48,196 nucleotides of DNA from an uncultured Acidimicrobiaceae bacterium (lineage in GTDB: Bacteria > Actinomycetota > Acidimicrobiia > Acidimicrobiales > SZUA-35). The first letter of the stretch is position 1. Every line of letters begins with the position of its first letter. Location: the NCBI GenBank assembly GCA_964351995.1, contig CAYGQE010000001.1, positions 1 to 48,196 on the forward strand. The letters run 5' to 3'. The position numbers and the translations under genes are program-made. The notes beneath the pieces were generated by a model. The model made no database searches. It saw only the letters and a list, made by a program, of their open reading frames with translations, and was not told the origin of the DNA. Below are positions 1 through 20,053 of the stretch, piece after piece.

Positions 1-212
1 ACCGAAGCCCTTCCGAGCACGTCGCTGGCCTGGCTGGCCGAGGCGAGCACGACACCACTCGCTCCCGCAGCCTCAGCGGTGTGGCACGATGCGCACGAGC
101 GTTCGAGAATCGGCTGGATGTCGGTGCTGTAGACAACGGGGTCGAGCGAGAACGGATCGATCGCTTCTTCGACCAACGGCTCGGCCAGCGACGTGCTCGG
201 AAGGGCTTCGGT
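1..212. repeat. 30-bp perfect inverted repeat (1-30 vs 183-212) flanking a 152-bp segment inside the partial lipoprotein CDS
   Basis: The reverse complement of 1-30 (ACCGAAGCCCTTCCGAGCACGTCGCTGGCC) is identical to 183-212. The repeat may extend beyond the window start. Confidence 0.6.
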
Positions 213-368
213 GGTGTCCGGGGTCGAGGTCGTTGTCTCGATCGGTGTGGCGTCGTCGTTCGGGACGAACAGGTTCGGCTCCTCCACCGCACGCTCGTTC
301 TCCGCCGAACACGCGCCCAACAACGCCAGTCCGAGAACCATCAGACCAAGCAACCAATGAGCGCGCAT
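1..368 (-). CDS. Secreted lipoprotein, partial; the 3' end lies beyond the window start
   Basis: Minus-strand ATG at 366-368. My own translation gives MRAHWLLGLMVLGLALLGACSAENER..., with a signal peptide and an LLGAC lipobox. The frame stays open with no stop down to position 1. The ORF track does not list it because it is truncated by the window edge. Its function is unknown. Confidence 0.5.
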   Translation of the reverse strand, partial: MRAHWLLGLMVLGLALLGACSAENERAVEEPNLFVPNDDATPIETTTSTPDTTEALPSTSLAEPLVEEAIDPFSLDPVVYSTDIQPILERSCASCHTAEAAGASGVVLASASQASDVLGRAS

Positions 369-477
369 GACGCCGACGGTACTCGACTCGCCGAAACCCG
401 ATGGCGCGACCGCGACCCCTGAGGCAACGCGGTGCCCATGATCTTGTGAACTGCTCGAACGACGCATCGACTTCAAG

Positions 478-501
478 TTGGGAGGGGTCGGGTCCTCCCA
501 A
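478..501. repeat. GC-rich palindromic element TTGGGAGGGGTCGGGTCCTCCCAA (copy 1); hairpin with 8-bp stem and 8-nt loop
   Basis: A 24-mer identical to 3575-3598. It sits 1 nt downstream of the stop codon (503-505) of the minus-strand dioxygenase gene, in the gap before the next minus-strand gene. It probably acts as a terminator-like hairpin. Confidence 0.7.
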
Positions 502-502
502 G

Positions 503-1882
503 TCAGTCCGAGATCCAGCTTCCGTGGGCGCCATAGGGCACTCGTTGCGGCAGCTGGATGCTGGCGACCGGCGGCGCTGAGAAGTTCTGAGCGTCGATGA
601 TCACGAAGCTCGACACGCCGGTGGCTTCGTCGTGGACCAGGTTCATGATCCAGCCGTCATCCTCGCCGGCATCAATGGCTCGGGGAGCAAACACCGGCTC
701 GGCGCCGTGCACGTGGTTCCCACCGAGCGAGTGCTCCTCAAAGGCACCGCTGCGCAGGTCGTATTTGAACAGCGACGAGCCGTAGACCGGCTCGGTTCCG
801 TCGTCATCGCCGAGGGCCATCATGTAGCCGAAGCGAGCATCGAGCCCGACCAATCGCTCGTCGACCCGACCGAAGTCTGCGTTGCGGTCGTCGATCTGTT
901 CCTCGGTGACCGTGCCTGCAGTGAGGTCGATGGTCCACTTCCACAGGAAAGATCCGTCATCGGAGTAGTCGTCGCCACCCGAGCCGTAGGCCGAGTCCTT
1001 GCGGGCGACGTGCAACACGATCCGTTCCTCACCGTTCGGCCCGGTCTCTTCGAACGCGTTGACCGGATGGAAGACGTAACACGGCTCGATCTCGAACCAT
1101 CGCACATCAGCGTTGGTGCCATTGCGAGGCATCACGCCAAGCCGCGCCCCCTCTTCCTTCTTGAACTGGAACGGCAATCCTGTGTGGACAACGCTCAGGT
1201 CAAAGCAGAGCGGCAGATCCATGAACACAACGTGATTCCGGGTGACGTTGAAGTCATGCATCATCACCATGTTGGGGATCTCGATCGGCTCGAGCTGCAG
1301 AAGTGAACCCTGCGGGCTGACACGGATGTAGTTGAGGAACGGGGGTTCGTACGACATGTAGGAGAAGGCGAGCAGCTCGCCGGTGACCGGACAGATCTTC
1401 GGGTGAGCCGTCATCGACGTGGTGAGCGCACCGCCGTAATTCTGGACACCGAGCGTGTTGAGTTCGGTGTCGATCCGCCAGGGCCAGTGGCCCTCCTCGA
1501 GGCACAGGATCTCGCCGTTGTGGGGCAGCACGTGGGTGTTGCCCGTGCCTCGCAGAAAGTCCATCGTGCCGCCGCCTCCGGTCCGCTTCGGCTTCTCGCC
1601 GGTGATCCGCTCGGTCTGGATCATGCGGTTGCGGTACCACTCGGCCCGGCCTTCGGACAGACGGATGCCGTGCACCATGCCGTCACCGAAGAACCAGTGA
1701 GCCGACGTGCCCGACTCTGGGTTGGGACCGGTGCGGATGTAGACGCCGTTCAACTCGGGCGGAATCGTCCCCTCGACGACGAGCTCCGTCTCGGTGCGCT
1801 CTTCGTGCATCGGGGCCCAGTTGCCCCGTAGGTGCCACGGCACCTGGACGTCCTCAGTCCCGGGTTCTGTCGTGGTCATCAT
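503..1882 (-). CDS. Carotenoid / apocarotenoid cleavage dioxygenase (RPE65/CCD family)
   Basis: The ORF is 503..2059. I trimmed it to the internal start MMTTTEPG at 1882, because the longer N-terminus would overlap the divergent neighbour. Family-typical length is about 460 aa, with conserved His-containing segments (HWFFGDGMVHG, HDFNVT, HVARKD) spread along the protein. This assignment is family recognition, not a search result. Confidence 0.8.
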   Translation of the reverse strand: MMTTTEPGTEDVQVPWHLRGNWAPMHEERTETELVVEGTIPPELNGVYIRTGPNPESGTSAHWFFGDGMVHGIRLSEGRAEWYRNRMIQTERITGEKPKRTGGGGTMDFLRGTGNTHVLPHNGEILCLEEGHWPWRIDTELNTLGVQNYGGALTTSMTAHPKICPVTGELLAFSYMSYEPPFLNYIRVSPQGSLLQLEPIEIPNMVMMHDFNVTRNHVVFMDLPLCFDLSVVHTGLPFQFKKEEGARLGVMPRNGTNADVRWFEIEPCYVFHPVNAFEETGPNGEERIVLHVARKDSAYGSGGDDYSDDGSFLWKWTIDLTAGTVTEEQIDDRNADFGRVDERLVGLDARFGYMMALGDDDGTEPVYGSSLFKYDLRSGAFEEHSLGGNHVHGAEPVFAPRAIDAGEDDGWIMNLVHDEATGVSSFVIIDAQNFSAPPVASIQLPQRVPYGAHGSWISD

Positions 1883-1955
1883 GTCCTCCCTTTCGTCGAG
1901 CGGCCATCCTGACCTAGCGTCTGTGACGTTCGCCACTCGAAGATCGAGGTACCAG

Positions 1956-3527
1956 ATGGCTGTGCTCACCAAGGATGCTGCTGCAGAGCGAGGCAACGAC
2001 CTCGCCCTCGCTGACGAGGTTCGCACCCGAACGTGGGCCGAGCTCGACACCCATGTCAATCAACTGGTGCACGCCATGCGAGACGCTGGGATCGGCGCTG
2101 GCGACACGATCGCGCTCATCGCCGGCAACAGCGTCGAATGGTTCGAGACCATGTTCCTTGCCGCCCATGCCGGCCTGACCGTTGTGCCGGTCAACTGGCA
2201 TCTCGTTGGCCCCGAGATCGCCTACATCTTGAGCGACTCCGGGGCGAAGGCCGTGATTGCCGGTCACCAGTTCGAAGCAGCGGTCGCCAACGCGCTGGAT
2301 GATCCCTCGACCTCTACGGTCGAGCTCGCCTTGATCACCACCGGGCCCGATGCACCAACTACTGATCGCTTCCAGTCATACGACGAGTTCTTGGCGAGCG
2401 GCTCGGTTGAGGAGCCAGAAGGCCAGAGCTTCGGTGGCCCGATGTTCTACACCTCGGGCACGACGGGTCATCCCAAAGGGGTCAGTGGTTCGCTTGCGAG
2501 CATGCCGCCGGGAAGCGATCCGTCGATCTGGCAGCTGATCGGCAGCGGCATCGCTGGGTTCCTTCCCACTCCCGGCCGGACGGCCCTGTGCGGCCCGGCC
2601 TACCACTCGGCGCAATGGGCATTCTCGTTCTTGCCGCTGGTCGTCGGCTCATCCATCGTGATGCAGCACAAGTACGACAGTGCTGGCTTGCTCCGCATGA
2701 TCGATGAGCACGCCGTCACCAACGTGCACTTGGTGCCAACCCAGATGAAGCGGCTCACCGACCTTCCCAACGAGGTGAAGGCTGGCTTCGATGGCTCGTC
2801 GCTCGAGATGGTCCTGCATGGCGCAGCTCCATGCCCTCCAGGAGTGAAGCAATCGATGATCGACTGGTGGGGTCCGAAGATCACCGAGTACTACGGCTCG
2901 ACCGAAGGATCGGTCATCACGATGATCGATTCGGCCCAGTGGATGGCCAAGGGAGGCAGTGTCGGCCCTCCCTTGCCGGGTTTCGAGATCCTCGTGATCG
3001 ATGATGCCGGCCAGCGGGTCGGGCCGAATGAGAGTGGCACGCTCTACTTCCGCAGCGGGGCCGACTTCAGCTACCACAACGCGCCAGAGAAGACCGCCGA
3101 GGCTCACCTCGAACCCGGTGTCTTCACCACTGGCGACGTGGGCTTCCTCGACGATGAGGGCTATCTCTGGCTGAGCGATCGCAAGATCGACATGATCATC
3201 TCCGGCGGCGTCAACATCTACCCGGCCGAGATCGAGGGAGCCCTCGGCGACCACCCGTTGGTTGCTGATGTGGCCGTGATCGGTGTGCCAAACGATGACT
3301 TCGGCGAAGAGGTCAAAGCCGTGGTGGTGTTGAGCGACCGGGTTTCACCGCAAGACCAGGCCGCAACACTCGACCAACTTCGTGCCCACTGTCGAGAAAA
3401 CCTTGCCGGCTACAAGGTGCCCCGCTCGATCGATGTGGTCCACGAGCTTCCTCGCACCGGCACCGGCAAGGTCCAGAAGCGCAAGCTGCGTGACCCCTAC
3501 TGGGCTGACACCGATCGAGCGATTTAG
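1956..3527 (+). CDS. Acyl-CoA synthetase / AMP-dependent ligase (FadD-like)
   Basis: The AMP-binding motif YTSGTTGHPKGV is present, and the C-terminal GKVQKRKLRD lysine motif is present. I took the start at the internal ATG 1956 (MAVLTKDAAAERGNDLAL...), because the upstream part of the 1794 ORF overlaps the divergent gene. Confidence 0.85.
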   Translation: MAVLTKDAAAERGNDLALADEVRTRTWAELDTHVNQLVHAMRDAGIGAGDTIALIAGNSVEWFETMFLAAHAGLTVVPVNWHLVGPEIAYILSDSGAKAVIAGHQFEAAVANALDDPSTSTVELALITTGPDAPTTDRFQSYDEFLASGSVEEPEGQSFGGPMFYTSGTTGHPKGVSGSLASMPPGSDPSIWQLIGSGIAGFLPTPGRTALCGPAYHSAQWAFSFLPLVVGSSIVMQHKYDSAGLLRMIDEHAVTNVHLVPTQMKRLTDLPNEVKAGFDGSSLEMVLHGAAPCPPGVKQSMIDWWGPKITEYYGSTEGSVITMIDSAQWMAKGGSVGPPLPGFEILVIDDAGQRVGPNESGTLYFRSGADFSYHNAPEKTAEAHLEPGVFTTGDVGFLDDEGYLWLSDRKIDMIISGGVNIYPAEIEGALGDHPLVADVAVIGVPNDDFGEEVKAVVVLSDRVSPQDQAATLDQLRAHCRENLAGYKVPRSIDVVHELPRTGTGKVQKRKLRDPYWADTDRAI

Positions 3528-3574
3528 CCCCAAACGAAGTGCCGGCGGTTCATCGGCGGCACCAGTCGACTGAC

Positions 3575-3598
3575 TTGGGAGGGGTCGGGTCCTCCCAA
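3575..3598. repeat. GC-rich palindromic element, copy 2 (identical 24-mer)
   Basis: TTGGGAGGGGTCGGGTCCTCCCAA sits between the convergent gene ends at 3527 (+) and 3612 (-). Confidence 0.7.
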
Positions 3599-3611
3599 CT
3601 GGCTCGCTACT

Positions 3612-11102: not shown

Positions 11103-11444
11103 ATGACTGTCGTGAAGATCAACGCACTCGAGATTCCACCCCAGGCCGGCGATGAAATCGTCAAGCGATTCACCGCTCGCATGTCGAGCCTGGCTGATGT
11201 CGCTGGCTTCGAGGGATTCGAACTCCTTCGCCCGACGGGAGAGGCCGAAACCCGCTGGTTCGTCTACACCCGCTGGGCTGACCAAGCGGCATATGAAGGC
11301 TGGCGTGACGGCGATGGTGCTCAGAACGCGCACGCCAAGCCGAACGGAGCCGAAGAGGGCGAAGCGCCGCAGCGCCCCGTCAGCATGGGCGCCACCCTGC
11401 TCGAGTTCGAGGTCGAGGTCGAGGTCGGCCCCAGCGGCAAGTAG
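11103..11444 (+). CDS. Antibiotic-biosynthesis-monooxygenase (ABM) domain protein
   Basis: The ABM ferredoxin-like fold segments are present (MTVVKINALEIPP...FEGFELLRP...WFVYTRWADQAAYEGW). The start is at the internal ATG 11103. The C-terminus carries an EVEVEV repeat encoded by (gaggtc)x3. Confidence 0.7.
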   Translation: MTVVKINALEIPPQAGDEIVKRFTARMSSLADVAGFEGFELLRPTGEAETRWFVYTRWADQAAYEGWRDGDGAQNAHAKPNGAEEGEAPQRPVSMGATLLEFEVEVEVGPSGK

Positions 11445-11617
11445 TACCGGGGTCAGGTCCCTTCAACTTCAACTTCACGTCCGACGAGAGCTGAAGCGAA
11501 CGGCCCTGATCCCGTTTGGAGAATTGGGGAACTCTTGGGGATGTGAAGCCGTTCACAGTCTCAACACCTGCGGCGTGCCAACATGGTCACGTCATCGCCG
11601 ACTGGAGAGGGGGCCGG

Positions 11618-12280
11618 GTGTCTGAGTTCTTTGAAATCGTGTTCGGCCTACCCACGATCCTGTTCACTGCCGCGCTCGCCATCAGCCTCGGCTTCTTCCT
11701 CATCACCTTCCTGTTCGGTGTGGGCGAAGGTGGAGGAAGCGACTTCGACGTCGAGCTCGATGCTGGCGGTCCAGACGCTGGCGGGTCTGACGGTGCCGAC
11801 GGCGACAGCACCGGTGCACTCGCTGGCCTGCTCCAAGCCGCCAACCTGCACATACTTCCGCTGGCCCTGACCTTCGCCATCGTCTCGCTGGTCGGCTGGT
11901 TCATTTCAGCGGTGTGCACCCTGTTGCTCACCTCGGACAACTCTCCCAACTTCGCAGCATCGCTTGCCTTCGTGCTCACTGGCCTCGCCGGAGGCATCTT
12001 CGTTGCCGGTCGAGTCGGTAACCTTCTCAGCCCGATCTTCGTGCCCGCTGTCCACGTCAAGCGCCGTGACCTCATCGGCCGCCTGTGCACCGTGCAGACC
12101 GGCCGAGTCGACCGAAACTTCGGTCAAGCCGAAGTGGTCGACGGCGAACGAAGTACTCATCTCATCCAAGTCCGATGCGAGATCGACAACGATCTTCGCT
12201 CGGGCATGCGTGCCCTCATCGTCGATGTCGACGACGACGGCCGCTTCATCGTGTCGCCCGACGTGAAAGACCTCGTCTGA
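11618..12280 (+). CDS. NfeD-like membrane protein (YuaF/NfeD short form) with C-terminal OB-fold
   Basis: GTG at 11618 with a GGAGAGG RBS 8 nt upstream. There are two or three TM helices, a Gly/Asp-rich linker and a C-terminal beta-rich domain. The position immediately upstream of a flotillin gene is the classic nfeD-floT arrangement. Confidence 0.65.
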   Translation: MSEFFEIVFGLPTILFTAALAISLGFFLITFLFGVGEGGGSDFDVELDAGGPDAGGSDGADGDSTGALAGLLQAANLHILPLALTFAIVSLVGWFISAVCTLLLTSDNSPNFAASLAFVLTGLAGGIFVAGRVGNLLSPIFVPAVHVKRRDLIGRLCTVQTGRVDRNFGQAEVVDGERSTHLIQVRCEIDNDLRSGMRALIVDVDDDGRFIVSPDVKDLV

Positions 12281-12365
12281 CCGGCGCCAGAGCCACACAG
12301 CAAGAGCACGACCGAAGCATCGAAAGCATCAAGTACCGAACACCAAGCATCGAAAGCAGAAACGC

Positions 12366-14327
12366 ATGGGCACCATCATCCTCATTCTCGTCTTCCTGGT
12401 CCTGGGAGTCCTGGCCTTCGCCGTCCTGGCCGGCCTGGTGTACTCATCGCTGTACAAGAAGGTGCCACAGGGCAAGGCACTCGTTGTCTCCACGGCCAAG
12501 AACGTCGAGGTGACCTTCACTGGTCGCCTTGTGATCCCCGTGATCCACAAGGCCGAGATGATGGACATCTCGGTCAAGACCATCGAGATCGATCGCAGAG
12601 CGCACGAGGGTCTGATCTGCGAAGACAACATCCGAGCCGACATCAAGGTCAATTTCTTCGTTCGGGTCAACAAGGCCGAAGAAGACGTGATCAAAGTGGC
12701 TCAAGCCATTGGTTGCGAGCGAGCCAGCCAGGTCGAAACCTTGGAAGAGCTCTTCACCGCAAAGTTCTCCGAGGCGCTCAAGACCGTCGGCAAGCAGATG
12801 GAGTTCATCTCGCTCTACACCGAGCGGGCCAGCTTCCGTGACCGCATCATCGAGGTCATCGGCACCGACCTCAACGGCTACAGCCTCGAAGACGTCGCCA
12901 TCGACTTCCTCGAGCAGACGCCGCTGAGCCAGCTCGACGCCGACAACATCCTCGACTCACAGGGCATTCGCAAGATCACCGAGCTGACCGCCATCGAGAA
13001 GGTCGCTACCAACAACGCTGCCAACGACGAGCGAAAGCAGATCACAGCCAAGAACGTCGAGACCCGTGAAGCCGTGCTCGAACTCGAGCGCCAGCAGGCC
13101 GATGCCGAGGCTCGGCAACGTCGAGAGATTCAGGGCGTGCAGGCTCGCGAGCAAGCCACAATCGACACAATTACCGCCGAAGAGCGACTGCGGGCCGAGA
13201 TGGCCGCGATCGAAGTCGACCAGAAGCTTGGCGTCGAACGAGAAAACCTGCAGCGCGAGGTCGAAGTCGCGGCGAAGAATCGTGAGCGCGTCCTCGCCGT
13301 CGAAGAAGAGCGAGTCAAGAAAGCCGCCGAACTCGAAGACATGAGCCGCCAAGTCGAGACGCTCGCTGCCGAGAAGGCACTCGAAACCGAGATGGGCACG
13401 ATCGCCGAGATTCGCCGAAGCCGCATTGCCATCGACAAGACCGTGGCCGAACAAGAAGAAGCCATCGAGACATTGCGCATGGTCGAGGAGGCGCAACGTC
13501 AGAAGCAGTCAGCAATCATCCTCGCTGAGGGTGAAGCGGAAGCCGCGCTGGTCAAGGACATAAAGGCCGCCGAAGCACAGGCGGCAGCTGCCGAACACCT
13601 GGCCGCCGAAGACGTTCGCATGGCCAAGGGTCGAATGGAGGCAAGCAACCTCGACGCCGCAGCGAAGATCAAGCTGGCCGAAGGTGTCCAGGCCGAAGCA
13701 GCCGCAGTTGGTCTGGCCGAAGTCGAAGTGCTGGAAGCCCGAGCTGCGGCCAACGAAAAGCTCGGTCTCGCCGATGTCACCGTCGAACGAGCCAAGGCCG
13801 ACGCCGTGCGTGAGCTCGGTGCCGCCGAGGCCTCCAAAGTCCGCGACGCCGGAATGGCCGAGGCTGAAGTTGTCGAGGCCAAGCTCAAGGGTGAGGCCAG
13901 CGGTCTGACCGACAAGGCTGCGGCCATGCGCGAGCTCGAAGGGGTTGGCCAAGAGCACGAGGAATTCGTGCGCAAGCTGGAAGCCGACACGAAGGTGCGG
14001 CTGGCACAAGTCGATGCATCCATCGACGTGGCGACGGCACAGGCCGATGCGATGAAGGTCGGTCTGGAGAGCGCCAACATCGACATCGTCGGCGGCTCGG
14101 ACATCTTCATCGACAAACTGGTCGGCGCCATCAGCACCGGCAAGGCCGTCGATGGCTTCGTCGAGAGTTCCGACCTTGCGTCGGCATCGCTCGAGAAGTA
14201 CCAGAACGGTGACGAGGACTTGGTGGCCAAGATCTCCGAAGCCATCGCTGGTCTCGGCGCCGACGGCATTCGCGACCTCTCCGTTGCTGATCTCCTTCGC
14301 CAGCTCGGTGCCGGTCCTCGGCCCTAG
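12366..14327 (+). CDS. Flotillin-like protein (SPFH/band-7 domain plus long EA-rich coiled coil)
   Basis: An N-terminal TM/hairpin helix and an SPFH core (KVPQGKALVVS...IKVNFFVRV) are present. An extended Glu/Ala/Arg-rich coiled-coil region of about 350 aa resembles FloT-type flotillins. Confidence 0.8.
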   Translation: MGTIILILVFLVLGVLAFAVLAGLVYSSLYKKVPQGKALVVSTAKNVEVTFTGRLVIPVIHKAEMMDISVKTIEIDRRAHEGLICEDNIRADIKVNFFVRVNKAEEDVIKVAQAIGCERASQVETLEELFTAKFSEALKTVGKQMEFISLYTERASFRDRIIEVIGTDLNGYSLEDVAIDFLEQTPLSQLDADNILDSQGIRKITELTAIEKVATNNAANDERKQITAKNVETREAVLELERQQADAEARQRREIQGVQAREQATIDTITAEERLRAEMAAIEVDQKLGVERENLQREVEVAAKNRERVLAVEEERVKKAAELEDMSRQVETLAAEKALETEMGTIAEIRRSRIAIDKTVAEQEEAIETLRMVEEAQRQKQSAIILAEGEAEAALVKDIKAAEAQAAAAEHLAAEDVRMAKGRMEASNLDAAAKIKLAEGVQAEAAAVGLAEVEVLEARAAANEKLGLADVTVERAKADAVRELGAAEASKVRDAGMAEAEVVEAKLKGEASGLTDKAAAMRELEGVGQEHEEFVRKLEADTKVRLAQVDASIDVATAQADAMKVGLESANIDIVGGSDIFIDKLVGAISTGKAVDGFVESSDLASASLEKYQNGDEDLVAKISEAIAGLGADGIRDLSVADLLRQLGAGPRP

Positions 14328-14409
14328 GGGGCCTGCCGTTCCTCGGCCCTGGGGGCCTCGTCACTAACAGAGTTGCTCGCTGGCGCTCACAACTCCCACC
14401 TGGGAAGAC

Positions 14410-17400
14410 ATGACTGATACTGAAAGTTCAACAATTGAAGAAGCACCGGCGAGCAGCAATGAGGGGATCTCGCAGGGGACCTATGACTTGCTTCGAGGGC
14501 GGCTGGAAGCCGCGGCCAAGGAACTGGTCAAGCGAGCGGATGCTCTCAACGCCCGGCGGCTTGAGGCGTTCGGTTCAGCCAAGCTCGAACTGCTGACGAC
14601 GGAACGGGTTCGGACCGAGCTCAACACGATCCCGCGCGACATCGCCAACATCGGCTCGCAGATGGTCATGGCCTACAACGCCGAGGTCGGCGTCCGGTCA
14701 GAGGTCCGACCGGAGGACGTCTTCAGCGTCCATCACCTCGAGCCCGGCTCCGAGGGCGACGCCACCCTGTGGTTCAGTCCGAACCCCAAAGGTCTCGACG
14801 GCTCAGCCCTCGATGACGACCAGTTCCGTCGTGACTTCGAAGAGCTCCACACCTACTTCAGTCAGACAAAACTCGAACAGCTCTACGCCGTTGGCCAGAA
14901 GCTGTTGGCGGTGTTTCGCACCGGCCAAGGCGAGGGCGACCTTCGCGTCTTCCGTTGGGAGATCGGACTCGACGACCAGCTGACCTACCTCGACGCTCGA
15001 GGCGATCGAGACCACCGCTTCCCGCCGTCACAAGACGTCTCGTGGACGTTGTCGACCCGCGCCGATCACGTCAACGCCACGCATGTGGGGCTGGGCGAGC
15101 GCGTGCTGATCGACCCGCTCGGCGGGTCGCTGGTGATCCAACTGGCCGATGGCGGAGGCGATGGTTCAGGCACAAAGCTGCTGAGCGATCGCCTCGACCA
15201 CGCTGACCAGAGCTTGCAGGACTGCACCATTCGCTGGGCCAGAGCTGGCGATCTGATGCTGATCGACGTGCTTCCCTACGGCGAAGTTCAGCACCGCTAC
15301 TACATCGTGAATCTGCTGGTCGACAAGGCCGTCCGCATGGATGCGCTGGGGTCTGCGTTCCGTCAGCTACCCGATGGCCAGGGCCTCATCTTTCCCGAGG
15401 GCATCTACCTCAAGACCGGCGAGATGCGAACCTTCGATGTCGACTCTGCCAACGCCGAGTTGCTCGAAGTGGTCCGCTCCCCCAACGGCGAAGACGTGCT
15501 CTACGTCTTCCACGAACGCACCTCCGGCCGTTCCATCTTGTTGCCGTACAACGTGGTGCGTCAGGAAGTGGCGGCACCGATCTGGTGTCACGGTCACACC
15601 GTGTTCGATGACGGAACGCTTGTGGTGTTTCGCGAGGAGCCAGAGCCCACACGCATCCATCCGATGCAGGTTTGGTCGACGCCGTTCGGCGCCGACGAGT
15701 GGTATGCCCAACAGCCACGCACCGCATCAAACCTTGACCGCATCGGTAACGCCAGCCTCGTCAGCGGCATCGCCGACGCACTCTCGCTGTCCCGGCTGAT
15801 CGCCGACGTCGAGCCGTCGACCGCCATCTACACCGATCTCCTGTTGTCCGCTAGCCGATTCGTCGACAGCCATCACTGGAGCGGTGACGAAACTGTTGGC
15901 AACCTGGCCGAGAGCGCCCACGACATACGTGTCGTTGCGGAGCAGGTCATCGACGAGTTCGAGCGTATGCAAGCGGTACAAGCTGCGGCCGCTGCAGCCC
16001 TGGCAGAGGCCGAAGCCGAAGCGCTCAAGATCACCGATGACCTTCGCCTCTCGCCGCCGAAGACCACCGAGGGTTTCATTGACGGCCTGGCCGCGATCCG
16101 TCGCCAGATCGGACACCTCCACACCGAGCGTGAGCGCCGCGGTATCGACATCGCTCGCATCGACGAGCTGATCACCTCGACCACCGAAATCCACGACACG
16201 CTTGCCCAGCAAGCAGCGGCTCACCTCGCCGCCGACGGAGCGTTCGAGCCGTACCACCAGCAACTCACTACGCTCTCCAACGCCACCCCCGCTGCAGCGT
16301 CGTCACTGGAAGCAACCGAGACCCTCGAAGCCGTCGATGCACTGGCTGAATCGATGGATCTGGTCGCCAACACGGTGAGCGATCTCGTCGTTGACGACCC
16401 TCGCGTGCGCACCTCGGTGCTCGAACAGGTGGCGGGCGTGCTCGCCGAGATGAATCGGGTGCGGGCCGGCATCGAAGGCAAGCGAGATGAGCTGATCCAG
16501 AACGAGACCGGCGCGGCCTTTGCCACTGAGCTCGGCTTGTTCGGCCAGTCGATCGCCACTGCAGTCAGCCGGGCCAACACCCCTGAAGCCTGCGACGACG
16601 CGTTGGCCCGTCTCTTGCTTCAGCTCGAACAACTCGAAACCGCTGGTCCCCGCACCGACGACCAGGTCGAGGAGCTCTCCACCAGGCGAGACCAGGTCAC
16701 CGAGGCACTCACGTCTCGTCGGCAGCAACTGGTCGACGATCGCCAGCAGCGAGCCGATCGACTGATCGCCGCCGCCACCCGAACCCTGGACCGAGTGGCC
16801 GAGCGGGCACAGACAATGCCGTCAGCCGACGACGTCAACGCCTTCTTCGCCGCCGACCCCATGGTCGGCCGTGTCCGCAAACTGGTCGAGGATCTCCGCG
16901 AGCTCGGTGAGCCCGTCAGAGCAGACGAATTGCAGTCACAACTCGGCGCCTCCCGGGACCGTGCCGTCCGTGCGCTGCGAGACCGCCAGGATCTCTTCGA
17001 CGGCGACGCCGTGAAGCTCGGCCGCTTTCGCTTCAGCGTGGACGATCGCACCCGCGAACTCACGCTCGTCCCCGGCGAGCATCACCTGCAGGCCGTGCTC
17101 ACCGGCACCGATCTGCGACTCCCCATCGAAGACGAACGACTTGATGCTCACAAAGAGCTCTGGGAGCAACCGCTGGCATCTGAGACGCCCAAGCTGTACC
17201 GATCAGCCTTCCTCGCCGGCGACCTCCTCCTCACCGCACTCAGTCAATTCAATTCGTCTGAACAGCTCGACGGCGAGATCTCGCTCACTATTCCAGAGCC
17301 CAAGATCGGCACGGTCGACGGTGCCGTCACGCCGGGTGACACGACCGCATTGCTCGATCAGGTCCGATCGGCGGTTGATCGGCGCCTCGGCGAGGGGTAC

Positions 17401-19470
17401 GACCGTGGGGTTCATGATGTCGACGCCACGCAGATCCTCGGGGTCATCGGCACCAGAGCCATCGAGGCCGGACCGCTCACGACGCCGAGTGATGTGCGGG
17501 CCAATGCCCAGGTCGTGTGGGCGGGGCTGGCCGATGCATCTCGCCACCTGTGGACCGATCGAGGTCGAGCCATCGCCACCGCAGGCGCAGGCCGGGCCAC
17601 GCTCGACCGGCTGGCCGAGGAGCTGGTCGACACAACCAACAGTGACCGGCGCATGGCCGACTATCTGCTGTCGGAACTCGTCCGTCCAGAGGGCTTCAGT
17701 TTCGCTCAATCCTCCCGAGCCGCTGATCAGATCGCCACCATGCGACGGGACAAGGCGTTCAAAGCGGTGCTCGAAGCGGCCAGAGCCGACGTCGTTGGCA
17801 TCCTCCCGGTCATCGCCGACGCCGTGCAACGAGCGATGCCAGACGAACGCCATGTCGTCCCCGAGATCGCCGTCGCCCTTGCCATTCCTGACCTCGAACG
17901 GCGCACCGTCGATGTCGAGCTCGGCTTCACCGTGGCCGGCCTCAACGGCCGCCACCCCACCATCGTCGACGGCAAGATGACCGGTCGGATCGACGATCTC
18001 CTCGACCAAGTCGCCCAGCACCGGGCAACGGTCCTGCCGATGCACCAGGCCTTTGCCGCTGCTCGGCGCGAAACCCTCGAAGGCTTGCGCAAGACGCTTC
18101 GAGTCGACGACCTCGAGCCCCGAGTGCCCGATGGTTTCGTCCGCAACCAGCTGATCGACCAGATCTACCTGCCGCTGATCGGCGACAACCTCGCCCGCCA
18201 GATCGGCACCGTCGATGACCAGGGTGGCCAGCGATCTGGGCTGTTGATGCTGCTGTCGCCTCCCGGCTACGGCAAGACCACGCTGGTCGAATACGTCGCC
18301 TCTCGCCTCGGCATGGCACTGGTGAAAGTGTCGGGCCCCGGCCTTGGTCACGAAGTCACCTCGCTCGACCCCGGCCAGGCGCCGAGCGCCACGGCGGCTC
18401 GTGAGATCGAACGGATCAACCTGGCCTTCGCCGTTGGCACCAACGTCATCTTGTATCTCGATGACATCCAACACACCGACCCCGAACTGCTGCAGCGCTT
18501 CATCTCGCTGTGTGACGCCCAGCGCAGGGTCGAGGGTGTGTGGAACGGCGAGAGCCGAACGTTCGACCTCCGAGGTAAGCGCTTCGCCGTGGTGATGGCG
18601 GGCAATCCCTACACCGAGTCCGGCGATCGGTTCCGCATTCCCGACATGCTCGCCAACCGCGCCGACACCTACAACTTGGGTGACGTGCTCTCGGGCAACG
18701 AAGACGTCTTCGCTCGCAGCTACATCGAGAACGCTCTCACGGCCAACCCCACGCTTGCTCCGCTGGCAGGTCGAAGCGCAGCCGATCTCCAGCTGTTCTT
18801 CCGGGCGGCTGAGGGTTCGCCGCTCGAAGAATCATCGCTCGAACACGGCTACTCCAGCGCAGAGTCGAGCGAGATCGTCACTGTCCTCGGCCACCTCATG
18901 CGAGTCCAAGAAGTCGTCCTGAAGGTCAATCGGCAGTACATCGCATCAGCGGCCACCGACGATCAGTACCGCACCGAACCACCGTTTCTGCTGCAGGGTT
19001 CGTATCGAAACATGGCCCGCATGGCGTCAAAGCTTCTTCCAGCAATGACCAACGCTGAAGTCGATCGCATCGTTGACGAGCACTACGTCGCCGAGTCCCA
19101 AGCGCTCACCGGTCAGGCAGAAGCGAACCTGCTGAAGCTCGGCTCGATGCGAGGAACGTTGACTGCCGAACACCAAGAGCGATGGGACGACATCCTGCGT
19201 GTGTTCCAGCGTCAACAGCGCCTCGGCGGCGACGACCGCGACCCCGCCACTCGCGTGGTCGCAGCAATCGAGCAGGTGGCGGAAACGCTGTCTCGCCAGA
19301 GCAGTCAGGGTTCACAGTCCAGCAAGCCGGCGGAGCCACCGGTGATCAACATCACCGTTCCCGCTCCCGTCGTGGTGTCGTCACTCCCCGACCCGGCCGA
19401 CGAACCCCTCGCCCCATCGATCGACCTGACGCCAGACGAAGGCCCCGAACCCCCCGACGACCCCCGCTGA
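14410..19470 (+). CDS. Giant 1686-aa protein: long N-terminal region of unknown function plus C-terminal AAA+ (P-loop) ATPase domain
   Basis: This is a single uninterrupted ORF. It has Walker A SPPGYGKTT, Walker B ILYLDDIQ, and an AAA_5/McrB/MoxR-like sensor segment MAGNPYTESGDRFRIPDMLANRADTYNL, at roughly residues 1270-1500. The N-terminal 1250 aa are a mixed beta-rich and long helical/coiled-coil region with no motif I can assign. The C-terminal tail is Pro/Ser-rich. The gene is co-directional with nfeD-floT, 82 nt downstream of floT. Confidence 0.8.
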   Translation: MTDTESSTIEEAPASSNEGISQGTYDLLRGRLEAAAKELVKRADALNARRLEAFGSAKLELLTTERVRTELNTIPRDIANIGSQMVMAYNAEVGVRSEVRPEDVFSVHHLEPGSEGDATLWFSPNPKGLDGSALDDDQFRRDFEELHTYFSQTKLEQLYAVGQKLLAVFRTGQGEGDLRVFRWEIGLDDQLTYLDARGDRDHRFPPSQDVSWTLSTRADHVNATHVGLGERVLIDPLGGSLVIQLADGGGDGSGTKLLSDRLDHADQSLQDCTIRWARAGDLMLIDVLPYGEVQHRYYIVNLLVDKAVRMDALGSAFRQLPDGQGLIFPEGIYLKTGEMRTFDVDSANAELLEVVRSPNGEDVLYVFHERTSGRSILLPYNVVRQEVAAPIWCHGHTVFDDGTLVVFREEPEPTRIHPMQVWSTPFGADEWYAQQPRTASNLDRIGNASLVSGIADALSLSRLIADVEPSTAIYTDLLLSASRFVDSHHWSGDETVGNLAESAHDIRVVAEQVIDEFERMQAVQAAAAAALAEAEAEALKITDDLRLSPPKTTEGFIDGLAAIRRQIGHLHTERERRGIDIARIDELITSTTEIHDTLAQQAAAHLAADGAFEPYHQQLTTLSNATPAAASSLEATETLEAVDALAESMDLVANTVSDLVVDDPRVRTSVLEQVAGVLAEMNRVRAGIEGKRDELIQNETGAAFATELGLFGQSIATAVSRANTPEACDDALARLLLQLEQLETAGPRTDDQVEELSTRRDQVTEALTSRRQQLVDDRQQRADRLIAAATRTLDRVAERAQTMPSADDVNAFFAADPMVGRVRKLVEDLRELGEPVRADELQSQLGASRDRAVRALRDRQDLFDGDAVKLGRFRFSVDDRTRELTLVPGEHHLQAVLTGTDLRLPIEDERLDAHKELWEQPLASETPKLYRSAFLAGDLLLTALSQFNSSEQLDGEISLTIPEPKIGTVDGAVTPGDTTALLDQVRSAVDRRLGEGYDRGVHDVDATQILGVIGTRAIEAGPLTTPSDVRANAQVVWAGLADASRHLWTDRGRAIATAGAGRATLDRLAEELVDTTNSDRRMADYLLSELVRPEGFSFAQSSRAADQIATMRRDKAFKAVLEAARADVVGILPVIADAVQRAMPDERHVVPEIAVALAIPDLERRTVDVELGFTVAGLNGRHPTIVDGKMTGRIDDLLDQVAQHRATVLPMHQAFAAARRETLEGLRKTLRVDDLEPRVPDGFVRNQLIDQIYLPLIGDNLARQIGTVDDQGGQRSGLLMLLSPPGYGKTTLVEYVASRLGMALVKVSGPGLGHEVTSLDPGQAPSATAAREIERINLAFAVGTNVILYLDDIQHTDPELLQRFISLCDAQRRVEGVWNGESRTFDLRGKRFAVVMAGNPYTESGDRFRIPDMLANRADTYNLGDVLSGNEDVFARSYIENALTANPTLAPLAGRSAADLQLFFRAAEGSPLEESSLEHGYSSAESSEIVTVLGHLMRVQEVVLKVNRQYIASAATDDQYRTEPPFLLQGSYRNMARMASKLLPAMTNAEVDRIVDEHYVAESQALTGQAEANLLKLGSMRGTLTAEHQERWDDILRVFQRQQRLGGDDRDPATRVVAAIEQVAETLSRQSSQGSQSSKPAEPPVINITVPAPVVVSSLPDPADEPLAPSIDLTPDEGPEPPDDPR

Positions 19471-19472
19471 AG

Positions 19473-19527
19473 TTGGGAGGGTCCGACCCCTCCCAACTGT
19501 TGCGTGGGAGGGGTCGGGTCCTCCCAA
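19473..19527. repeat. Tandem pair of the same GC-rich palindromic elements (copies 3a and 3b) filling a convergent intergenic gap
   Basis: Copy 3a at 19473-19496 is TTGGGAGGGTCCGACCCCTCCCAA, a variant with an 11-bp stem. Copy 3b at 19505-19527 is TGGGAGGGGTCGGGTCCTCCCAA, identical over 23 nt to copies 1 and 2. Together they lie between the stop of the giant gene (19468-19470) and the stop of osmC (19529-19531). Confidence 0.7.
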
Positions 19528-19528
19528 G

Positions 19529-20053
19529 TCAAGCCAGATCGATGGCGAGGGGGACGGCGCGGCTGAGGGTGTGACCGACCGGCGAGGTGCCGACGACTTT
19601 GGCGTGGAGCTCGGCTCGCTGTTCGTCGGTGGCGTTGCTGTCGAGGTTGACCTTCACCCGAATGGCCTCGTAGCCGGCGTTGCCCTCGGGGTTGAGCCCA
19701 AGGAACGTGTGTAGGTCGAGGTCACCCTCGAGCTCGATCGAGAGATCGTTGATCTCGATTCCGGAGGCGGTGGCGTTCGCGGCGTAGCCAACCGCAAGGC
19801 AATTCCCGAGCGCTCCGAGCAGTTGTTCGACGGGGTTGGGGCCGGTGTCGGCGCCACCCAGCGATGTCGGCTCATCGGAATGGATCGGAGCAAAATCACG
19901 GATTGAGGCGCTCGACCGGAACCCTTCGTGCCACTGAACTTTGGCGTTCCACATGGTCGATGCAAGCTCAGGCGACTCTTGGATCTTGTTCGCCAACCCA
20001 GCGACGGCGGCGATGTCCACGTTGTTGGTCTGAGTGGTTCCAGTTGCGGTCAT
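19529..20053 (-). CDS. OsmC/Ohr-family peroxiredoxin-like protein
   Basis: The family core GPNPVEQLLGALGNC is present, and length is about 175 aa. ATG at 20053 with a GGGGAG RBS. Confidence 0.8.
   Translation of the reverse strand: MTATGTTQTNNVDIAAVAGLANKIQESPELASTMWNAKVQWHEGFRSSASIRDFAPIHSDEPTSLGGADTGPNPVEQLLGALGNCLAVGYAANATASGIEINDLSIELEGDLDLHTFLGLNPEGNAGYEAIRVKVNLDSNATDEQRAELHAKVVGTSPVGHTLSRAVPLAIDLA

Follow-up and report, generated by a model that had tools for sequence, protein, structure and literature searches.

We analyzed a stretch of 48,196 nucleotides (nt) from an uncultured Acidimicrobiaceae bacterium (GenBank assembly GCA_964351995.1, contig CAYGQE010000001.1, positions 1 to 48,196; in the following, the window). 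It carries three co-directional plus-strand open reading frames (ORFs), which encode a short NfeD-like membrane protein of the YqiJ/YuaF type (gene 1), a YqiK-type flotillin (gene 2), and a giant AAA+ ATPase (gene 3). The ORF list of the window agreed with a first-pass annotation of this DNA as to the coordinates of the three genes (Table 1), their common direction, and the spacers of 85 nt (gene 1/gene 2) and 82 nt (gene 2/gene 3). The same gene order was found around ATPase homologues in other genomes, and the triad is almost certainly a conserved functional unit of a kind that has been published before.

Table 1. Features of the three-gene locus and its immediate flanks in the window
Feature	Coordinates	Strand	Basis or remark
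YqiJ/YuaF-type (short NfeD-like) membrane protein, 220 amino acids (gene 1)	11618..12280	+	hydropathy, 20-homologue alignment, hhalign
YqiK-type flotillin, 653 amino acids, ATG start (gene 2)	12366..14327	+	hhalign against E. coli YqiK, hydropathy, composition
Giant ATPase, 1686 amino acids, ATG start (gene 3)	14410..19470	+	Pfam, hydropathy, full-length homologues
DUF3686 region (PF12458), residues 38-489	14521..15876	+	Pfam, AlphaFold2, Foldseek
Spectrin-like helical rod, residues 447-862, long helices and bundles	15748..16995	+	AlphaFold2
DUF7902 (PF25472), residues 611-694, within helical rod	16240-16491	+	Pfam
Middle domain, residues 863-1244, small beta hairpins and helices	16996..18141	+	AlphaFold2
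AAA+ module: alpha/beta core (about residues 1245-1470) and helical lid/C-terminal bundle (about 1483-1634)	18142..19311	+	
Pro/Ser-rich C-terminal tail, residues 1636-1686, predicted disordered	19315..19467	+	predicted local distance difference test (pLDDT) score below 50, composition
Upstream intergenic region, 173 nt	11445..11617	+	between ABM-monooxygenase stop (11444) and GTG 11618
REP-like palindrome, two inverted copies	19473..19527	.	between convergent ATPase and OsmC genes, directly after ATPase stop
ABM-type monooxygenase gene, upstream neighbour	11103-11444	+	not conserved beside triad in other genomes
OsmC-like (peroxiredoxin/osmotic stress) gene, convergent	19529-20053	minus	not conserved beside triad in other genomes

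For gene 1, the ORF list gave a longer reading frame (11516..12280, plus strand). We preferred the internal GTG at position 11618 as start codon because a Shine-Dalgarno-like GGAGAGGGGG precedes it (at about 11605-11614) and because the N-terminus that results, MSEFFEIVFGLPT, lines up with those of 19 homologues. Three hydrophobic stretches (approximately residues 3-39, 71-107, and 111-134) were detected in the protein by a hydropathy scan; it also contains a variable loop of acidic character and, at the C-terminus, an OB-like domain (about residues 150-215). The identity of genes 1 and 2 was assessed by comparing homologue alignments from related loci with YqiJ and YqiK of E. coli MG1655 using hhalign. 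The family profile of gene 1 matched YqiJ (hhalign probability 92.8%, E = 4e-7) over transmembrane segments 2-3 and the OB-like domain. The Pfam family YqiJ_OB matched weakly to gene 1 itself (E = 0.054) and to one of its 20 homologues (E = 2e-4). Both the layout of the protein, with several membrane passes ahead of an OB-fold domain at the C-terminus, and the position of its gene directly upstream of an SPFH gene in the window and in 69 related loci are those of the short NfeD or YqiJ/YuaF-type proteins. Three Streptomyces loci (L051, L059, and L069) showed no intact YqiJ/NfeD-like ORF ahead of the flotillin gene, and the OB-like part of the small protein looks degenerate in another Streptomyces locus (L037). 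Possibly, the small protein is dispensable or decaying in this lineage.

The product of gene 2 starts with a membrane anchor, a single hydrophobic segment (residues 1-31) that is conserved in 18 homologues. It is followed by an SPFH/band-7 region (about residues 33-200), a coiled coil rich in Ala and Glu (about residues 210-560), and a C-terminal segment conserved in the family (IDIVGG...). Residues 211-560 contain 77 Ala and 60 Glu among 350 positions and align with the coiled coil of YqiK. The family profile of the 653-residue protein matched YqiK over 421 columns including anchor, SPFH domain, and coiled coil (hhalign probability 99.9%, E = 2.8e-32), and close homologues carry the public names 'flotillin family protein', 'YqiK', or 'SPFH domain-containing'. 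Scans of genes 1 and 2 with Pfam and NCBIfam gave no significant match; the labels 'NfeD-like' and 'SPFH/flotillin' of the first-pass annotation thus hold at the profile level (hhalign against YqiJ and YqiK), but not at the level of Pfam or NCBIfam. For the window flotillin, Pfam Band_7 did not match even at E <= 10, and only four of the 18 homologues were matched by this family (PF01145). The C-terminal 'Flot' domain (PF15975) was found neither in the window flotillin nor among the families matched by the 18 homologues. Searches of the PDB with the single flotillin sequence and with the 18-sequence profile returned nothing usable, the sole match being the coiled coil of prohibitin-2 (E = 0.34). 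Pfam Band_7 mostly misses the divergent subfamily of which the window flotillin is a member, and annotation relying on Pfam would leave many proteins of this subfamily unlabelled.

No hydrophobic segment was detected in the product of gene 3 by hydropathy, so the giant protein is predicted to be cytosolic. It was matched by PF12458 (E = 1.3e-150), PF25472 (E = 4.5e-20), and AAA (E = 1.8e-6), with the AAA/AAA_5 match covering residues 1279-1402. The combination of PF12458, PF25472, and a C-terminal AAA+ domain in one protein of approximately 1600-1900 amino acids characterizes the family that NCBI calls 'DNA repair ATPase'. Full-length homologues exist in at least six phyla; the nearest relatives come from metagenome-assembled genomes (MAGs) of Acidimicrobiales (58-62% identity). 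The family of the N-terminal 870 residues comprises 896 clusters at 50% identity among 1.84 billion representatives. The ATPase family is rare but widespread.

The architecture of the giant protein was predicted with two AlphaFold2 models based on a 66-sequence alignment, covering residues 1-870 (pLDDT 86.8) and residues 840-1686 (pLDDT 87.8). In these models, an N-terminal helix (residues 17-54) precedes a beta-propeller-like domain with strands at residues 60-423. A Foldseek search related this domain to WD40, Vps18, Sec12, paraoxonase, and prolyl-oligopeptidase propellers (E = 4e-6 to 1e-3, modest TM scores). Further towards the C-terminus, the middle domain contains an invariant EGY-RG-HD-DA motif (residues 995-1006); a fold search with the region including this domain (residues 863-1244) produced a match list dominated by the AAA+ core and no fold for the middle domain. 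The N-terminal 1250 amino acids, for which the first-pass annotation had proposed a profile or structure search, are thereby divided into a propeller-like domain in PF12458, a helical rod containing DUF7902, and a mixed middle domain. Within the AAA+ module, the Walker A motif reads SPPGYGKTT (K1289) with GYGKT being invariant, as are the sensor-1 residue N1399 and the box VII arginine R1417. The Walker B motif, LYLDDIQH (residues 1351-1355 at 18460-18474), deviates from the canonical hhhhDE pattern, and its residues D1351-D1352 are invariant in the 66 sequences. Overall, the AAA+ core is most similar to the MoxR/dynein/midasin group, and its closest structural relatives are CbbQ and NorQ.

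These assignments bear on the name of the family. If 'DNA repair ATPase' were right, the protein would act on DNA as a coiled-coil ATPase similar to SMC/Rad50, and its linkage to a flotillin gene would be incidental. Such a role is suggested by the wording of the PF12458 entry in Pfam ('ATPase involved in DNA repair'), by the product name at NCBI, by the long helical region of the protein, and by weak P-loop similarities to RuvB. The RuvB matches, however, span only about 35 residues around Walker A and reach 17 bits compared with a cut-off of 282. Moreover, the ATPase is of the MoxR/dynein type and not an ABC/SMC head, Pfam detected no nuclease, helicase, or DNA-binding domain in gene 3, the sole invariant partners are two membrane proteins, and no supporting paper was found in the searchable literature. 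We regard a function in DNA repair as extremely improbable. The name 'DNA repair ATPase', which public annotation uniformly gives to this family, is misleading, and the annotation of genomes would benefit from a correct label.

Conserved motifs of the ATPase were used to scan one genome per species (GTDB). At least 595 relatives were confirmed, and the best 80 loci were kept together with 10-kb flanks. According to their record titles, these loci derive from (i) Actinomycetota (48 loci); (ii) Gammaproteobacteria or proteobacteria (18); (iii) Myxococcota or 'delta' (10); (iv) Acidobacteriota (two); (v) a Clostridia MAG (one); and (vi) Planctomycetota (one). A flotillin homologue with 43-72% identity (tblastn) was located directly upstream of the ATPase gene, on the same strand, in 76 of the 76 informative loci. 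In the remaining four (L024, L029, L066, and L078), no more than 380 nt separate the start of the ATPase gene from the end of the contig. A YqiJ-like gene was detected in 69 loci (62 by tblastn and 67 by clustering, with two more inside over-extended ORFs). When all ORFs were clustered in an all-against-all comparison, only the triad genes and their shadow ORFs were common to most of the 80 loci. The junctions between the triad genes in the related loci frequently overlap by 1 or 4 nt, and overlapping start and stop codons are the usual sign of translational coupling.

The linkage was also seen in the reverse direction, as two flotillin homologues taken as starting points led to the same triad both times. 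The most divergent ATPase relatives, with 25-26% identity, carry it as well. Pairwise identities of ATPase and flotillin co-varied across 67 loci (Pearson 0.94, Spearman 0.85), which is consistent with inheritance as a unit. The first-pass annotation had counted the giant ATPase as a third member of the nfeD-flotillin pair, a claim to be given up if its homologues in other genomes lacked SPFH and NfeD neighbours; scoring the neighbourhoods revealed the opposite. Order and orientation of the triad are held from 25% to 90% identity and in at least six phyla, a persistence that is difficult to account for unless co-expression and stoichiometry are under selection. Gene order might also be conserved without shared function, for example by co-transfer of a selfish cassette or for regulatory convenience. 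All the evidence is genomic, and the variable flanks would be compatible with a mobile cassette; given the range of identities and phyla over which the arrangement persists, and the overlapping stop and start codons, we consider this explanation very improbable.

According to the first-pass annotation, a giant ATPase as the third member is not known from the classic yuaF-floT-yuaI type operon. The arrangement is not new, as the same operon was already described using comparative genomics (Ravi et al. 2024, mSystems 9:e00847-23, PMC11237479; preprint 2020). The published operon combines a CesT/Tir-PspA dyad with three further genes, including one for a protein with three transmembrane segments prototyped by YqiJ/YuaF, and sometimes contains a PLD gene. 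Abbreviated operons without the PspA dyad are widespread, and the supplementary table lists the same gene order in Dokdonia donghaensis (PMC11237479). The window corresponds to this operon in its YqiJ-YuaF gene, its gene for Band-7, coiled coil, and flotillin, and its gene for beta-propeller, coiled coil, and AAA-ATPase. Unlike the full-length version, it includes neither the CesT/Tir-PspA dyad nor a PLD gene, and the upstream gene encodes an ABM monooxygenase; the window triad is the abbreviated form. What is added here are the MoxR/dynein-type assignment, the Asp-Asp Walker B motif, and the linkage count of 76 out of 76. The finding is a further instance, in an Acidimicrobiales-like genome, of an operon described in silico, and its value lies in providing a well-defined experimental target. 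Searches of the literature for DUF3686, PF12458, DUF7902, and flotillin together with MoxR returned nothing relevant, and general SPFH papers do not mention the ATPase.

Several known systems invite comparison. The first two window genes are homologous to yqiJ-yqiK of E. coli and yuaF-floT of B. subtilis, occur in the same order, and share with them the protein architectures of membrane segments plus OB domain and of transmembrane segment, SPFH domain, and coiled coil. In contrast to the window, no ATPase gene follows yqiK in E. coli, where sibD/ibsD come next. The AAA+ protease FtsH is enclosed by the SPFH cage of HflK/C, and QmcA-YbbJ forms an SPFH-NfeD cage. HflK/C-FtsH, in which an SPFH scaffold is coupled to a membrane-proximal AAA+ protein, offers the best mechanistic analogy. 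It does not imply family membership, since gene 3 shows no M41 peptidase match and no hydrophobic segment. Compared with the MoxR remodellers (CbbQ/CbbO, NorQ/NorD, and RavA/ViaA), the gene 3 product is about six times larger, has a propeller-and-rod N-terminus of its own, and displays the Asp-Asp Walker B motif. Vps4/CdvC acting with ESCRT-III is likewise an analogy and not a case of membership: here, an AAA+ protein is genomically linked, in some lineages, to PspA of the ESCRT-III superfamily.

This link was found in ten gammaproteobacterial loci (L034, L047, L052, L056, L063, L067, L072, L073, L076, and L079), in which the YqiJ-like gene is immediately preceded by a gene for PspA/IM30. In nine of them, a gene of DUF2170, a CesT/Tir-like family (YjfI-like), comes before PspA. 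Downstream of the triad, a PLD-like (HKD) gene was present in eight and a rhomboid gene in six loci of Gammaproteobacteria. On the plasmid pQBR103 (L082), the triad comes after a yjf-like cluster with PspA and polyamine-related genes (PspA-rhomboid-DUF2491-DUF350-DUF1190-glutathionylspermidine-synthase-like). The first-pass annotation had suggested a membrane, stress, or defence function. Judged by gene context, the PspA, rhomboid, and PLD genes beside the gammaproteobacterial triads strengthen the membrane and stress part of this suggestion, while defence found no support in PADLOC or phage records.

A role in defence would mean that a horizontally mobile module senses infection at the membrane and responds with death or arrest of the cell; in some versions, the PLD-like protein would be the effector. 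The patchy distribution across phyla with nearly flat identities of 38-46% between them, the occurrence of the module on 13 plasmid or megaplasmid records, the attached HKD/PLD gene in eight loci, and the proximity of a divergent locus (L087) to RNA-repair-like and HipA genes would all fit an anti-phage or conflict system. Yet the matches of the ATPase in PADLOC-DB 2.0 were marginal and restricted to the P-loop (IetA, E = 1.3e-3; LmuB, E = 3.3e-3), and genes 1 and 2 had none. Among 134 immediate neighbours of the triad, no PADLOC family had more than four matches. The commonest ones (mad3, AriA, and GajA/PtuA; DrmC) look like generic ABC-ATPase or PLD similarity because they parallel four ABC_tran and three PLDc_2 Pfam matches in the same set. 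Furthermore, tblastn revealed no match in 50,697 phage records, the flanks in the window are metabolic, and the abbreviated form comes without an obvious effector. Taken together, an anti-phage function appears improbable.

On balance, we lean slightly towards the view that the three genes constitute one operon for a membrane-associated, ATP-driven machine that would carry out remodelling at a scaffold of flotillin when the envelope is under stress. The YqiJ-like protein and the flotillin would co-assemble into an oligomeric SPFH scaffold at the cytoplasmic face of the membrane, for which the solved SPFH-NfeD and SPFH cages set a precedent. The cytosolic giant protein would be recruited to this scaffold via its beta-propeller and spectrin-like helical rod. 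Its MoxR/dynein-type AAA+ module would then oligomerise and drive, at the expense of ATP, the assembly, disassembly, or extraction of the scaffold or of proteins held there, which may include PspA/ESCRT-III-like polymers in some lineages. In the cell, the machine could serve to maintain or repair the membrane in response to envelope stress. For scaffold remodelling as the specific mechanism, we put the chances at about even. Like the first-pass annotation, we infer the functional coupling of the three genes from sequence, and with it physical contact between the triad proteins, ATPase activity, substrate, and stress role.

Alternatively, the flotillin-YqiJ platform might only localise the ATPase, which would then help other membrane protein complexes to mature or assemble, in the manner of MoxR proteins, and would not remodel the scaffold or PspA. 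The nearest structural relatives, CbbQ and NorQ, activate specific enzyme complexes or promote their maturation, and published work reports that FloA-NfeD of S. aureus stabilises unfolded proteins. Ravi et al. (PMC11237479) proposed a chaperone-like role, i.e. the assembly of membrane-linked complexes, or a role in membrane dynamics, and favoured the chaperone-like one. On the other hand, neither a candidate client gene nor a VWA adaptor is conserved beside the triad, and the flotillin seems to be more than an anchor, given that the ATPase is linked to, and co-varies with, a single flotillin subfamily in a very tight 1:1 relation. We consider such a client-directed function possible, though unlikely.

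Several observations weigh against the remodelling machine that we favour. The Asp-Asp Walker B motif could indicate that the AAA+ module is a slow, switch-like nucleoside triphosphatase rather than a motor; DnaA, whose Walker B has a similar DDIQ sequence, hydrolyses ATP slowly and under regulation. In most cases, MoxR ATPases cooperate with a VWA partner; no VWA family was seen among the conserved or frequent neighbours of the triad. PspA, CesT/Tir (DUF2170), PLD, and rhomboid genes were not detected in the 48-kb window (tblastn) or in 70 of the 80 loci. As PspA was not detected there, the PspA link is either lineage-specific or acts in trans. The co-variation of ATPase and flotillin identities partly reflects shared phylogeny. 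A scan for a module promoter with a sigma-70-type consensus gave no match. Finally, no experimental study of any member was found in the searchable literature.

A more far-reaching and, in our view, doubtful reading would make the giant protein the bacterial counterpart of the ATPases that remodel membrane scaffolds in eukaryotes and archaea. With a coat-like propeller and rod as arm and a built-in MoxR/dynein-type ring, it would assemble or disassemble flotillin cages and, where present, PspA/ESCRT-III polymers. For the flotillin scaffolds and PspA/ESCRT-III-like polymers of bacteria, the mode of assembly and disassembly is not settled, and a recent review points to the apparent absence of a Vps4-like ATPase from bacteria (PMC7619361). 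If true, the counterpart reading would supply the ATP-dependent regulator that bacterial flotillin/PspA systems are thought to lack. An ATPase invariably encoded beside one flotillin subfamily is an obvious candidate for this regulator.

Regarding transcription signals, the intergenic region upstream of gene 1 likely represents the promoter region of the module. Neither spacer within the triad showed excess folding stability compared with shuffled sequence (z = 0.56 and 0.29), and a scan of both revealed no credible terminator-like site, so that co-transcription appears plausible. Short direct repeats were noted at both spacers. Ahead of the flotillin start, AAGCATCGAAAGCA occurs twice, 30 nt apart (12315-12328 and 12345-12358). 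The repeat TCCTCGGCCCT(A/G)GGGGCCT is likewise present in two copies (14315-14334 and 14340-14358), the first of which includes the flotillin stop codon.

Directly behind the ATPase gene, the first-pass annotation had placed tandem palindromic hairpins that would close off the module. The segment is indeed a stable palindromic element, with a folding energy of -52.9 kcal/mol (z = -7.5; none of 200 shuffles was equally stable). RNAfold, however, preferred pairing of the two palindromic copies in a single 23-bp hairpin over two tandem hairpins, and a T-tract is absent. The palindrome, TTGGGAGGGGTCGGGTCCTCCCAA, resembles repetitive extragenic palindromic (REP) elements and was found at three intergenic positions in the window (476-499, 3574-3599, and 19473-19527). 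As its 16-mer TGGGAGGGGTCGGGTC recurs at two other intergenic sites (479-494 and 3576-3591), the element looks like a genome-wide REP-like repeat and is not specific for the module. It is possible that it acts as a bidirectional terminator lacking a T-tract.

The genes flanking the triad in the window encode an allophanate hydrolase/amidase, an isochorismatase, a hydrolase, an ABM monooxygenase, an OsmC protein, a dehydrogenase, and a TauD-type dioxygenase. A candidate for a PspA-like coiled-coil gene at 29-30 kb, a region of high A-over-T skew, turned out to be a membrane-transporter-like ORF on the minus strand. In Streptomyces, a divergent PucR-type regulator (GGDEF_2 and HTH_30) and a TrkA_N-domain membrane protein of 660 amino acids are recurrent neighbours of the triad (L042, L043, L049, L054, L055, L057, L066, L074, and others; also L083). 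Local synteny or a connection with ion homeostasis might underlie this association. The divergent triad of L087 (ATPase identity of 26%) is adjoined by genes for an RNA ligase, an HD/AAA_33 kinase-like protein, and R2K-domain proteins, as well as by a HipA toxin pair. These flanks (22-3232 and 11191-12811) were the only context resembling a conflict system that we observed.

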